Notes under the pieces: generated by a model
Told to the model about the DNA's origin: nothing
The model's database searches: none
Seen by the model: only the letters and a program-made list of their open reading frames with translations
In this document: one piece after another, positions 9,667 through 34,836 of the stretch
Layout of the letters: each line of letters opens with the position of its first letter
How positions within the stretch are numbered: position 1 is the stretch's first letter
Position numbers and translations under genes: made by a program
Source: an uncultured virus (IMG/VR IMGVR_UViG_3300036715_000865)
Taxonomy: Duplodnaviria > Heunggongvirae > Uroviricota > Caudoviricetes
IMG/VR virus record: IMGVR_UViG_3300036715_000865
Length of the DNA: 34,836 nt
Strand: one strand, 5' to 3'

Positions 9667-10263
9667 ATGGATGATATCAAAAAATCAATACAAAATAATA
9701 TTGAAGAAAGAAAGAACAATATTATGAAAGGATTTGCAGGATATGATGATTTAGAGAAAGGAAGAAAATCAGCCCCAATAGGAACAATATCAGGCAGTTA
9801 CAAAAAGGTAGATAAAGATAAATGGGAGCCAGTTAAAAAACCCAAAAAGGGAAGCAAGTTCAAAGTAGGTAAAAGTGAATTTACTGTAAGTGAAATTGAT
9901 GGCTCAATTATGACTGTTGCTGATTCTAAGGGAAACACTAAGAAGTTTAACAGTAAAGTTCTTTATGAAAACAAGATTGAGTTCACCAACCCAGAGCCTA
10001 GAAAAGCGCCAGGAACTTCAAAACCTAAAGAGCCTTGGTATATGAATCCAAACTCCAAAGAAAGCAAAAAACAAGAAAAGCAAGAAGAGTTCAAAGACCT
10101 GTTAGAGCAAAAAAGACAGCTAGATTCTGATATGAATCAGGAAGCTGGAGAACTAGGTGATGCTTGGACTGACGCTCATGCTAATGAATACGGTGGTAAA
10201 TTGGGCGAGTTAGACGATAAGATTGACGCTATGAAGAAGAAACATAAATATCTTAACAATTAA
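9667..10263 (+). CDS. Putative internal head/cargo protein with shared leader
   Basis: N-terminus MDDIKKSIQNNIEERKNNIMKGF...DDLEKG is nearly identical to that of 10276; the remainder is unrelated. Confidence 0.6.
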   Translation: MDDIKKSIQNNIEERKNNIMKGFAGYDDLEKGRKSAPIGTISGSYKKVDKDKWEPVKKPKKGSKFKVGKSEFTVSEIDGSIMTVADSKGNTKKFNSKVLYENKIEFTNPEPRKAPGTSKPKEPWYMNPNSKESKKQEKQEEFKDLLEQKRQLDSDMNQEAGELGDAWTDAHANEYGGKLGELDDKIDAMKKKHKYLNN

Positions 10264-10275
10264 CAATTAACAATC

Positions 10276-11454
10276 ATGGATATCGAAAAGTCTATACAAA
10301 ATAAAATTGAAGAGCGTAAAAATAATATCATGAAGGGTTTTGTTTCATCACACCCTTTACAGTTTGCTCAACAGGAATCTTCTGATGATTTAGAAAAAGC
10401 AAGAAATACTGGTGAAACTAAAGTTGGTAAGGATGGAATAACACGTGTTTGGACTCAATTACCTAACGGAAAGTTTGACTGGCGTAGACAAAGCGCAAAA
10501 TCAACACCTAAGAGTTCTAGTGATGCTCAAACACAAGGTTCTGCTTCCACGTCAAGCGCAACCCCACCTGCTTCAGCAAGTACAACCACTGATAAAATTG
10601 ATAGTTCAGGCAAATCTGTATTTTCTAACTATTTGAAGAATGTCGCTAAAATTGAAGAAGAAGAAAAGACATTGAAAAAATATAGTCAAGGAACGACATT
10701 TAATGGTATAAAGAAAGATGCTTCTGAAAAGAGGTTGAAAGTTTTATATCAAAAAGAATCAGATTATTTAGGCAAATTCACACAAGCTGATAAGGATAAA
10801 TATGAGGAGCATTACTCAATTCCATTTGACGAAGATGGTCAAGTCGGACAAGTTGATGATTATTCAGATGAAAATAAAAAGACTTTAAAGGATTTGAAAT
10901 TATCTGGTTCTCGTATGAATGCTGAACATGGATACACAGATAAATTTGAAAAGACTATGACTTCAGATATTTCAAATGTTTTGCAGGAAAAATTCAAGGA
11001 TAAGAAGATAACGGATGTATCATTAAAACAATACTCTAGTCAAGGAGGTGCTTGGGGTAGTTATAATCAACCGAATTTCACTAGGTTAGATTTTTCTGTA
11101 GATGGTGTGGAATACAGAGTAGAAGCAAAAACAGGCGAAAAAATGTCATCTGGAAGAAGAAGAGACAACAAATTCAGCGAACTTGAAGTCATAAAATACA
11201 ATGATAAAGGTCAAGGGAGCAATATAGCTAACTTAGACAACAGTACTGGATTTAATGATACTGCAGAAGAAGATTCTAAATCTATAACAATGCAAAAAGA
11301 TTTAATATCCAAACATAAATTAGCAAAGGATGGATATTATGACAGTCAATGGTCAAAGGAGAAGCCAGAATTAGATTTCAAACAATCACTTAGAGCATAT
11401 GAATGGCTACATGCTGCCTCTTTGATAGCAGAAGGAATAGGCAAGATAAAATAA
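10276..11454 (+). CDS. Putative internal head/cargo protein with shared leader and TKVGKDG...DWR module
   Basis: Leader shared with 9667; LEKA-x3-GETKVGKDGITRVWTQLPNGKFDWRR shared with 32173; Ser/Thr linker, then a unique domain. Confidence 0.65.
   Translation: MDIEKSIQNKIEERKNNIMKGFVSSHPLQFAQQESSDDLEKARNTGETKVGKDGITRVWTQLPNGKFDWRRQSAKSTPKSSSDAQTQGSASTSSATPPASASTTTDKIDSSGKSVFSNYLKNVAKIEEEEKTLKKYSQGTTFNGIKKDASEKRLKVLYQKESDYLGKFTQADKDKYEEHYSIPFDEDGQVGQVDDYSDENKKTLKDLKLSGSRMNAEHGYTDKFEKTMTSDISNVLQEKFKDKKITDVSLKQYSSQGGAWGSYNQPNFTRLDFSVDGVEYRVEAKTGEKMSSGRRRDNKFSELEVIKYNDKGQGSNIANLDNSTGFNDTAEEDSKSITMQKDLISKHKLAKDGYYDSQWSKEKPELDFKQSLRAYEWLHAASLIAEGIGKIK
11248..11269 (+). repeat. 22-bp exact direct repeat, copy 1
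   Basis: GGATTTAATGATACTGCAGAAG, identical at 13101..13122. Confidence 0.9.
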
Positions 11455-33612: not shown

Positions 33613-34835
33613 TGGATAAGGTCGAGCAATTACAGAAATCACTCAAAGTTGTTGCCTTGGCTAACTTCAGAGGAGAGGTTGAAGATGAAATGTTGATTAA
33701 TGCTTTTGAGAAATTCTCGAAAGCAATCAACTTTTTACCAGATGATAATTATGAAATCATTAAGTCTAAAACCTTTTATGATTCAATCAATGGTATAATT
33801 CCTGACCAGGAACTAATGAAGGCTTTGCAATTAGGACAAACTAAAGTTAAGAATGGCATTACCTATGTAGTCAAACTTACACCATCTGGACAACTGGATT
33901 GGAGAAAGGTCGTATCTAAAAAAACATCTAAAGATTCAGGCAATCCTGAAGATTATTTTGACACAGAACATTTTCCTAGCTTGTCAGATGTAGAGATAAT
34001 TAAATCTTTAGGAGGTTCGACTGGTGCCCAACTTGTAAAAGACAAAAATACTGGCAAGGAATATGTGATGAAGAAAGGTGCTTCAGCAGCCCATGTTGAA
34101 GAGGAATTTTTAGCAAATGCGATATATTCATCTTTAGGGGTTAATGTTCCTAATATGAAATTGTATAAATCTAAATCGGGTTCTCTTATTTTGTCAGAAT
34201 TCATGCCTAACACTGAGGCTGCAAATTCAAACTTGACAGACGATATACGAAAGGACGTATTGGAGAATTTTGTAGCAGATTGTTTGTTAGCTAATTGGGA
34301 TGCTTACAAAAACGACAATATATTAGTCAATAAAGATGATGGCAAAATTTATCGTGTAGACAACGGTGGTTCTTTAAGATTCTCTGCACAAGGAAGAGAT
34401 AAGGGTGACCATTTTGAAGATGAAGTAAACGAATTAGAATCTATGGTATCCAACAGCATGCAAATGACTGCTGGATTGACCCCAAAAGATATAAACAAAC
34501 AAATTAAGAAAATCTTAAAGAAAAAAGATAGTATTCTGTCAATGATAGAAGACGATGATTTGAACTTGAAGATGAGCAATAGATTCGCAAGTCTTGAGCT
34601 GAGACTAGAGGATTTAGACGAAACAAAAGACCCATATCGAGATTTAAGTGATAACGAAATGGAGAAAGCATTAGCTGATGCTGGACATATGTGGAGTAGT
34701 GATAATACTCATGGCTGGAATTTTCTATCAAATATTTGTAAGTTAAGAGGTTTTGATAAAGTAGCAACTGAAGTGGATGATTCAACATTTCAAAAAGCTA
34801 TCGAAAAGAAGGGTGCATTTATGGTTAATCGTGGT
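33612..34835 (+). CDS. Cargo-leader-bearing multidomain protein with HipA/PI3-PI4K-like kinase domain, 3'-truncated by the window edge (not in the ORF track)
   Basis: ATG at 33612 (TAATG overlap), open to the window end. Reads LMKALQLGQTKVKNGITY...GQLDWRK, then LGGSTGA, YVMKK, EEFLAN, LSEF, DCLLANWD...DNIL, RVDNGGSL. Confidence 0.8.
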   Translation, partial: MDKVEQLQKSLKVVALANFRGEVEDEMLINAFEKFSKAINFLPDDNYEIIKSKTFYDSINGIIPDQELMKALQLGQTKVKNGITYVVKLTPSGQLDWRKVVSKKTSKDSGNPEDYFDTEHFPSLSDVEIIKSLGGSTGAQLVKDKNTGKEYVMKKGASAAHVEEEFLANAIYSSLGVNVPNMKLYKSKSGSLILSEFMPNTEAANSNLTDDIRKDVLENFVADCLLANWDAYKNDNILVNKDDGKIYRVDNGGSLRFSAQGRDKGDHFEDEVNELESMVSNSMQMTAGLTPKDINKQIKKILKKKDSILSMIEDDDLNLKMSNRFASLELRLEDLDETKDPYRDLSDNEMEKALADAGHMWSSDNTHGWNFLSNICKLRGFDKVATEVDDSTFQKAIEKKGAFMVNRG

Positions 34836-34836
34836 T

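Follow-up and report, generated by a model that had tools for sequence, protein, structure and literature searches.

The locus described here raises the question whether a tailed phage marks several unrelated proteins with a common tag for transport inside its head. The DNA (34,836 nucleotides, in the following 'the window') is from an uncultured virus of the Caudoviricetes (IMG/VR record IMGVR_UViG_3300036715_000865). For positions 9,667 to 34,836 an earlier note, made from the sequence alone, had singled out six otherwise dissimilar open reading frames (ORFs), designated by their start positions as 9667, 10276, 12900, 19418, 32173 and 33612. They appeared to share an N-terminal leader, a short motif [ILMF]-x-K-[ASG] and a basic hairpin in front of different payloads. 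It had been proposed that the leader directs these proteins into the prohead, that the head protease cuts after the lysine and that the matured proteins are ejected into the host. Our analysis leads to a modified proposal. The tagged proteins probably are head-internal cargo, cut after lysine by an HK97-type prohead protease in a scheme which resembles those of T4 and phiKZ and is built from different parts. We hold this reading with moderate confidence.

A hairpin module in front of unrelated payloads

ORFs 10276, 32173 and 33612 share a homologous module of 37 residues, in which [I/L]-x-K-A is followed by a predicted three-stranded beta unit of 26 residues. BLASTP comparisons over the hairpin region gave E-values of 1.9e-16 (10276 and 32173), 1e-8 (32173 and 33612) and 7e-7 (10276 and 33612). 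A profile was built from an alignment of nine modules, including the columns of the site motif. Among the 49 ORFs of the window it matched these three alone, with E-values from 1e-22 to 7e-25 (a slash marks the putative scissile bond):

10384..10494, + strand: site and hairpin module of ORF 10276 (DDLEK/A...GETKVGKDGITRVWTQLPNGKFDWRR), profile E 6.7e-25, with predicted strands
32179..32289, + strand: site and hairpin module at the extreme N-terminus of ORF 32173 (MDNNIEK/A...), profile E 7.8e-25
33807..33914, + strand: site and hairpin module of ORF 33612 (QELMK/ALQLGQTKVKNGITYVVKLTPSGQLDWRK), profile E 1.1e-22

Originally, hairpins had been assigned to five of the six ORFs. Those claimed for 9667 and 19418 did not match the profile, and the homologous set is reduced to three. 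9667 has a shortened, profile-negative remnant at the expected position; the element taken for a hairpin in 19418 is conserved in its one orthologue. In BLASTP comparisons among the ORFs, 12900 and 19418 were without significant match.

An AlphaFold2 model of residues 1-115 of ORF 10276, computed with a 31-row alignment, had one helix over residues 2-24 (block pLDDT 90-92) and a shorter one over 37-41. Three strands (48-50, 56-61 and 67-71, block pLDDT 83-93) and a disordered segment (77-107, pLDDT <50) completed it. For this ORF the model bears out both the basic hairpin and the low-complexity linker of the earlier note.

How widespread the module is was examined by an exhaustive profile search over 1.84 billion representative proteins. 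It returned 62 representatives, 19 of them at E<=1e-10. Two matches were repeat-protein false positives and were discarded, which left 60 true members, all of them from metagenomes. The module starts between residues 3 and 81 in 59 members and at residue 188 in one. Hydrophobic-x-K-[AGS] directly precedes the hairpin in 57 of the 60. Payloads of at least 60 residues follow the hairpin in 49 members. They form 30 clusters without mutual relationship, of which 22 have a single member; Pfam names almost none. The proposed layout of a modular tag with varied payloads is thus found in 60 proteins with at least 30 payload types. The module itself was not found in Pfam or PHROGs when leader, hairpin pieces and whole proteins were scanned, and tblastn with ORF 10276 and with the module against 50,697 isolated-phage records gave no match or matches at chance level.

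The nearest record to the window, G001, is a 59.8-kb fragment without head genes. Three related IMG/VR contigs were identified. G002, a contig of 98,717 bp with 131 ORFs which is rated complete and shares about 85% identity with the window at the protein level, served as a stand-in relative, and further contigs with the hairpin were located by a degenerate DNA pattern. The window and G002 each contain three copies of the module, G003 and G004 two each, and another contig has five copies between its portal and kinase genes. The copy number was 2 to 5 per contig and the location always among the head genes.

The hairpin appears to be the common element of the tagged proteins and would stay on the mature protein after a cut at K/A. 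This would set it apart from a removable leader of the T4 type. The modular tag of the earlier note stands, and its T4-type leader would not if the cut is at this bond. In the orthologues of 32173 only 7 to 18 residues precede the proposed cut, and they are not conserved; therefore, this piece cannot carry a common signal. The hairpin could serve to retain the cargo within the head or on the DNA, or else to offer the scissile bond to the protease. In P0028, P0042 and P0046 the hairpin follows or ends a Lys/Ala/Thr-rich, histone-like low-complexity sequence and has no adjoining K-[AGS] site. This layout hints that the hairpin may work together with DNA-binding tails.

A further element is located at the opposite end. 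In 14 of the 60 members, among them P0015, P0017, P0019, P0021, P0022, P0031, P0034-36, P0051 and P0054, and in all four orthologues of the AAA protein 32173 the chain terminates in a tail of the form [IL]-[EQ]-K-A-x-x-x-[LF]-x-[LI]:

33574..33612, + strand: C-terminal tail of ORF 32173 (TLEKAYEILELSK), with the K470 site in 4/4 orthologues

The tail could be a second clipped signal.

A leader helix as a separate module

Four of the six highlighted ORFs contain the pattern R-x(1-2)-N-[IM]-x(0-1)-[KS]-GF, which is absent from the remaining 43 ORFs of the + strand. A leader profile was built from 31 family leaders; 10276 and 9667 were in the training set, 19418 was outside. The profile matched 10276 and 9667 (the latter with E 1.5e-10; both as training sequences) and residues 7-23 of 19418 (E 4.8e-4). 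The degenerate leader of 12900 (RLNMSGF) had no significant match (E 1.9). Thus, the shared leader can be upheld for 9667, 10276 and 19418 and is not supported by the profile for 12900. The three proteins have in common an N-terminal helix of 23 residues which ends in N-I-x-K-G-F:

10276..10347, + strand: leader helix of ORF 10276, residues 1-24, ending N-I-M-K-G-F; AlphaFold2 helix 2-24 at pLDDT 90-92; 31 aligned leaders

The leader end is itself a copy of the hydrophobic-x-K-G motif. Hence a protein of the 10276 type has two candidate cuts, K20/G and K41/A, ahead of its hairpin. Within the hairpin family the leader pattern was seen at residues 14-24 in 28 of 60 members, i.e. in about half. 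We read leader and hairpin as separate, independent modules, which occur alone or together.

A lysine motif common to putative cargo, scaffold and capsid protein

The motif [ILMF]-x-K-[ASG] occurs 33 times in the 2232 residues of the six ORFs and 36 times in the 8841 residues of the other 43. Compared with expectations from per-protein shuffles the excess was significant in 12900 (8 vs 1.05, p 0.001), 33612 (9 vs 1.95, p 0.001) and 19418 (5 vs 1.26, p 0.008) and marginal in 32173 (p 0.07) and 9667 (p 0.09). Consequently, the claim that the motif is commoner in these proteins than composition predicts applies to three of them, at the margin to two more, and fails for 10276.

The genes of relatives were more informative. 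In G002 and two further relatives the orthologue of 33612 is followed on its 3' side by a 136-aa ORF, a prohead protease-scaffold of about 500 residues and the capsid protein. Given this order, the window ends just before its own protease and capsid genes. In the relatives the protease-scaffold matches phrog_1028 (E 4.3e-32), and PF04586 was found on 4 of the 120 homologues listed; the capsid protein matches phrog_752 (E 8.2e-84) and PF17236. A 498-aa protease-scaffold gene lies directly upstream of the capsid gene, as befits the S78 family. P0075 (507 aa) probably is the protease-scaffold of the window phage; it is so assigned because it has the same contig tally as the window's own proteins, the sole basis of the assignment.

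When all 131 ORFs of G002 were ordered by motif enrichment, top place went to the protease-scaffold (15 vs 2.5); next, in this order, were the orthologue of 12900 (8 vs 1.2) and the kinase protein (10 vs 3.5). Protease-scaffold homologues number 571; the 120 listed had a mean of 16.5 motif copies vs 3.1 expected (5.27x), and the excess was above 2x in each of them. Thirteen sites were kept in 3/3 orthologues of about 50% identity.

The excess might be a by-product of helices rich in Lys, Glu, Ala and Leu, and the shared N-termini might reflect mere paralogy, with no function in common. These four residues do favour helices, AT and Lys contents of the genome are high, and helical periodicity is lost in shuffles. 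Against this speak control patterns in the same 120 proteins: hydrophobic-x-E-[AGS] was at 0.37x, the corresponding D and R patterns at 0.45x and 0.67x, K-[DENQ] at 1.36x and the reversed motif at 1.27x. Furthermore, the tags are found on at least 30 unrelated payloads. We consider an origin from composition and paralogy highly improbable and take the short motif to be real and specific.

The capsid protein has L-[QN]-K-A-L-E-A-G about 35 residues from its start. [ILFMV]-x-K-A-[LM] was located at residues 21-50 in 118 of 119 full-length capsid-protein homologues, with variable sequence before and conserved sequence after it. A site of the same kind in the major capsid protein had been named as a check on the cleavage proposal, and a candidate for it is present in these homologues. 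The capsid protein of Bacillus phage SP82G, a member of the SPO1 group, has the identical L-N-K-A-L-E-A-G. In SP82G the scaffold (11 vs 1.4, p 0.0005) and the protease (8 vs 1.6, p 0.001) were enriched in the motif, and none of six neighbouring genes was. The portal protein contains two candidate sites, LQK/A at K27 (20962-20973) in 4/4 orthologues and FVK/S at K522 (22447-22458) in 3/4; its C-terminus F-V-K-S-F-M-S-N-I-I-K resembles the C-terminal tail of the hairpin family. There is strong indirect support for the motif as a putative head-protease site common to cargo and capsid protein, because capsid protein, scaffold and protease of the relatives, encoded beyond the window, carry it.

Several points weigh against cleavage at this motif. 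Protein 10276, the best tagged of all, has no overall enrichment (3 vs 1.87, p 0.28). The motif counts of the window are biased, because the six ORFs had been picked for these very motifs; unbiased support comes from the relatives. A single copy of a four-residue motif means little. In G002 the motif occurred within the first 45 residues in 13 of 59 proteins of the virion block and in 9 of 72 others (Fisher p 0.16), and C-terminal copies were not enriched genome-wide (5 vs 4.4; 12 vs 10.3). In Listeria phage P100 motif enrichment was weak, with A-L-K-S at residue 24. A published maturation site for capsid proteins of the SPO1, A511, P100 or K type was not found in the literature searched. We infer the position of the cut, after lysine, from the shape of the motif and from analogy with HK97. 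The HK97 capsid protein gp5 is matured at a Lys-Ser bond.

The tagged proteins and their payloads

The features of the six ORFs outside the modules, and of one paralogue for comparison, are:

9667..10263, + strand: ORF 9667, 198 aa, paralogue of 10276; leader helix at residues 2-24 (...RKNNIMKGF) and LEKG at 29-32
10504..11454, + strand: Ser/Thr/Lys-rich disordered linker of ORF 10276 (residues 77-107, pLDDT <50) and payload
12900..13745, + strand: ORF 12900, acidic protein of 281 aa; eight motif copies in residues 1-145, none in the C-terminal ~135
19418..20842, + strand: ORF 19418, 474 aa, immediately before the portal gene; has a leader (residues 7-23, QRLNILKGF) and, farther on, a very acidic region
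32596..33378, + strand: AAA-type ATPase payload of ORF 32173, Walker A GGAGVGKS; phrog_1250 over residues 142-402, E 1.7e-16
15798..16766, + strand: second AAA paralogue without the module (comparison case); phrog_1250 E 4.4e-51, hairpin profile negative
33969..34835, + strand: protein-kinase-like payload of ORF 33612; model pLDDT 81.6, pTM 0.72

The earlier claim of distinct payloads is supported by the AAA domain, the kinase fold and the acidic 19418. 9667 and 10276 are paralogous along their length (BLASTP E 1.4e-10). Pfam and PHROG scans assigned no domain to 9667, 10276 or 12900. The payload of 10276 was also without a PDB sequence match and has one payload homologue, P0026; PDB sequence searches with three payloads gave nothing usable.

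The AAA proteins 32173 and 15798 are related (BLASTP E 1.9e-13). PF00004 matched in three family members, above the cutoff in P0041 (21.6 vs 21.2 bits) and below it in two. The K7 site of 32173 is present in 4/4 orthologues. ORF 15798-16766 has a TTG start, the position of which is uncertain, and, behind L-E-K-G, a beta-rich N-terminal stretch; in the orthologue of G002 this Lys is replaced by Arg.

ORF 33612 continues beyond the window and has 758 residues in G002. A region of ~65 residues with three further motif copies precedes its site, and the K70 and K51 sites are present in 4/4 orthologues. A Foldseek search with the payload model yielded H. pylori CtkA (3akk, E 1.4e-5) and actin-fragmin kinase (1cja, E 2.3e-5), and all matches listed were kinase-like. 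With tblastn, at E-values down to 7e-15, 33612 matched segments of large phage proteins with a C-terminal ART domain, some annotated as ADP-ribosyltransferase. Structure matches which tie the kinase region to MuF/ART proteins (TM 0.31-0.35) are leads only.

The remaining two proteins are acidic. The motif sites of 12900 are conserved in orthologues, and 12900 is a candidate for a multiply-cut propeptide or a core protein. Protein 19418 has a pI of 4.17 and a net charge of -37 in residues 321-400; its five motif copies are within the first 100 residues and all five are conserved in the G002 orthologue. Might some of the six, chiefly these two, be core or scaffold-like assembly proteins, degraded to make room for DNA, rather than effectors? 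The acidity of 12900 and its eight sites within residues 1-145 fit such a role, as do the extreme acidity of 19418 and its place directly before the portal gene; T4 core proteins are degraded to small peptides according to the available text of PMC9958956. On the other hand, 12900 has ~135 C-terminal residues free of sites, which resemble a surviving domain, and in 19418 the sites are confined to the first 100 residues. For the other four ORFs this explanation is compatible with their being cargo. Overall, an assembly role of this kind appears quite unlikely to us.

Proposed fate of the tagged proteins

We propose that a set of proteins of the late region of this phage would be head-internal cargo with one or both of two portable N-terminal modules, the ~23-residue helix ending in N-I-x-K-G-F and the 26-residue three-stranded beta unit after [I/L]-x-K-A. 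Either could be the ticket for entry into the prohead. The phage's HK97-type (S78) prohead protease would recognize hydrophobic-x-Lys-[Ala/Gly/Ser] and cut after the lysine. The same enzyme would trim about 35 residues off the capsid protein at L-x-K/A-L-E-A-G and chop up its own scaffold domain. Once in the prohead, the cargo would shed the leader and sometimes also the C-terminal tail. The mature cargo would remain inside, with the hairpin as its new N-terminus and the disordered basic linker as a tether for the payload, and may finally exit with the DNA and act in the host. Among the payloads would be an ATPase of the AAA type, a protein kinase of the polyvalent type and an acidic protein, besides domains without assignment. 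For an ejection into the host speak only the precedent of T4 Alt and the payload type, a kinase such as Iyer et al. assign to packaged polyvalent proteins.

Alternatively, the tagged proteins might act in the infected cell as host-takeover or accessory proteins and never be packaged. The hairpin would then bind nucleic acid or a host protein and Lys-Ala would be a helix cap instead of a cleavage site. Basic linkers do follow the hairpin, P0028, P0042 and P0046 join it to Lys/Ala-rich histone-like tails without K-[AGS], and 9667 and 10276 adjoin genes of unknown role. Moreover, the motif columns were part of the search profile, and its presence in the matches is partly built in. However, hydrophobic-x-K-[AGS] is at one fixed place in the 57 members although the number of preceding residues varies from 2 to about 80, and capsid protein, portal, scaffold and protease carry the same motif. 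Tagged genes were grouped with head genes in all contigs examined, and the kinase payload may be of a type predicted to be packaged, so far as the accessible portion of PMC5512222 describes it. We therefore regard a purely intracellular role as unlikely and favour head-internal cargo.

A more far-reaching version would make the hairpin a new, self-contained, retained capsid-loading domain, shuffled onto at least 30 payloads across a large clade of uncultured phages of ~100 kb with SPO1-type heads, with leader and C-terminal tail as further clipped signals, and the lysine rule the hitherto unreported specificity of the whole SPO1-type head-protease lineage including SPO1 and SP82G. We consider this extension possible and, taken as a whole, doubtful.

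Comparison with known head systems

New here are the structured hairpin with its proposed retention, the number of payloads and a lysine-based rule shared with cultured phages of the SPO1 group. Encapsulins use a short portable cargo-loading peptide to bring diverse cargo inside an HK97-fold shell, and no protease is involved. The C-terminal tail of the hairpin family is placed like such a peptide; unlike encapsulins, the phage scheme proposes a protease.

In T4 the head-protease site is L/I-x-E, and gp22, gp67 and gp68 are core or scaffold-like proteins which the head protease degrades. The available text of PMC9958956 describes a capsid targeting sequence on IPI-III and Alt, which is removed by the prohead protease gp21. 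As in T4, the phage described here has unrelated proteins with a short N-terminal tag holding a candidate head-protease site, one predicted site for capsid maturation and scaffold destruction, and cargo with predicted host-modifying enzymes. A motif common to cargo, capsid protein and scaffold was found at the sequence level. Unlike in T4, the protease is HK97-like (phrog_1028, PF04586, S78) and not gp21-like (S77), and Lys replaces Glu, hydrophobic-x-E-[AGS] being depleted in the protease-scaffold homologues. In addition, the mature protein would keep a folded beta-hairpin located on the C-terminal side of the cut, and the presence of a leader is optional.

In phiKZ and SPN3US, ejection proteins and long propeptides are cut at A-x-E by gp245 (PMC10052503, in the portion available). 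Propeptides with several motif copies which are cut repeatedly, a processed portal and many packaged or ejected proteins are predicted here as well. Motif and protease lineage differ and the genome is of ~97 kb, and in the portion available SPN3US is without a common structured tag. The motif is abundant in the scaffold, occurs as a single conserved copy near the N-terminus of the capsid protein and is found at the termini of accessory proteins. This distribution matches that of T4 and SPN3US as far as described in the available parts of PMC9958956 and PMC10052503. The phage system would thus work like those of T4 and of phiKZ/SPN3US and would belong to neither, because protease family and motif differ.

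From HK97 gp5 a scaffolding domain of 103 residues is removed (PMC10275583, in the portion available). The predicted protease belongs to the family of HK97 gp4 (MEROPS S78) by PF04586 and phrog_1028, with Lys at the proposed P1 and a small residue after it. Unlike in HK97, protease and a separate scaffold domain form one protein, the propeptide of the capsid protein would have only ~35 residues and the cargo would provide additional substrates.

MuF-fused polymorphic toxins of phages were reportedly described by Jamet and colleagues in 2017. In the parts of this literature available to us, a constant N-terminal part of polyvalent proteins and MuF toxins is thought to secure encapsidation of variable effector domains, an arrangement similar to that proposed here. 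A distinct kinase domain occurs in polyvalent proteins of Bacteroidetes phages, which are predicted to be packaged (Iyer et al., 2017; PMC5512222, in the portion available). The payload of 33612 may be of this 'polyvalent' kinase type; it has a predicted kinase-like fold and tblastn matches to large phage proteins with a C-terminal ART domain. Unlike MuF toxins and polyvalent proteins, the tagged proteins have no MuF domain, with no PF04233 (Phage_Mu_F) match, N-terminal or otherwise, in the six ORFs or in the 31 family members scanned. Their payloads are mostly single and spread over several genes, and the 37-residue module is absent from Pfam.

If the proposal is correct, it provides a rule, open to test, by which the head protease would cut throughout a very large lineage of phages. 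Model and therapeutic relatives such as SPO1 belong to this lineage and, more distantly, so do the Listeria and Staphylococcus myoviruses. Hairpin profile plus site would be a sequence handle for candidate injected proteins in metagenomic phages. Such proteins, most of them of unknown function, would be the likeliest source of new anti-defence and host-takeover activities. A compact tag for loading foreign proteins into capsids would be another use.

Gene context and further features

The long ORFs of the window are all on the + strand. The stretch is best explained as that part of an uncultured phage's genome, about 97 kb in size, in which the head genes lie. Landmarks are:

7955..9637, + strand: large terminase; phrog_38 E 1.1e-54, PF17289 E 6.5e-5; followed directly by 9667 and then 10276
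20890..22482, + strand: portal protein; PF04860 E 7.4e-22
29119..30021, + strand: gene earlier called MuF-like; unmatched in Pfam and PHROG; conserved in relatives (G002, L002 and L012)

Terminase and portal were correctly named as neighbours of the tagged genes, and the MuF-like identity of 29119-30021 found no backing in Pfam or PHROG. The nearest isolated relatives of the portal protein are Chryseobacterium phage MA9V-3 (45%), Bacillus phages of the SPO1 group (~43%) and Bacteroides DAC phages (38%). By its portal, capsid protein and prohead protease the phage is best explained as a relative of Bacteroidota phages and of the SPO1 group.

In G002 (L004:6878-7444, minus strand) a leader-plus-hairpin protein of 188 residues and a Nudix-like gene (GGKVDKGENIQEAAIRELFEETG) take the place of 9667/10276 behind the terminase gene, which suggests an exchange of cassettes. 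The label Nudix-like is given by eye from a motif, without a family scan.

The tagged genes had also been said to follow a shared upstream motif. This could not be established: CASCTATWA, a pattern taken from the same sites, had 3 matches vs 1.21 expected, a count equalled by 10 of 100 shuffles. Its sites in the window precede 9667, 19078 and 32173, and in G002 only a single corresponding gene out of three has it upstream. The start codons at 2172, 5460, 15798 and 17298 are preceded, at a distance of 15-45 bases, by a recurrent TT(T)ACAAAGTT-like element. It is a candidate promoter element of a class other than the CASCTATWA sites.

Further features were noted. The presence of a 5-hmdU DNA kinase helical domain (PF18723, E 2.4e-49) in the product of 18015-19034 implies that the DNA of this phage contains hypermodified thymidine; three other contigs have an orthologue immediately ahead of their portal gene. 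Behind the portal gene, 22487-24019 (510 aa) and 24033-26609 (858 aa) have Cys-rich N-termini, are without family match and share a stretch F/Y-T-Y-[IV]-x-[FY]-A (BLASTP E 0.025). The C-terminal part of 24033-26609 is long and Gly/Asn/Thr-rich and may be a fibre or spike. A collagen-like protein with a run of G-T-N triplets is encoded by 14007-14882 (PF01391, E 9e-10; tail-fibre PHROGs). At 2612-2685 there is a tRNA-like gene (Rfam RF00005, 41.4 bits, gathering score 29), which ARAGORN did not call; in the alignment its anticodon loop has 6 bases vs the usual 7.

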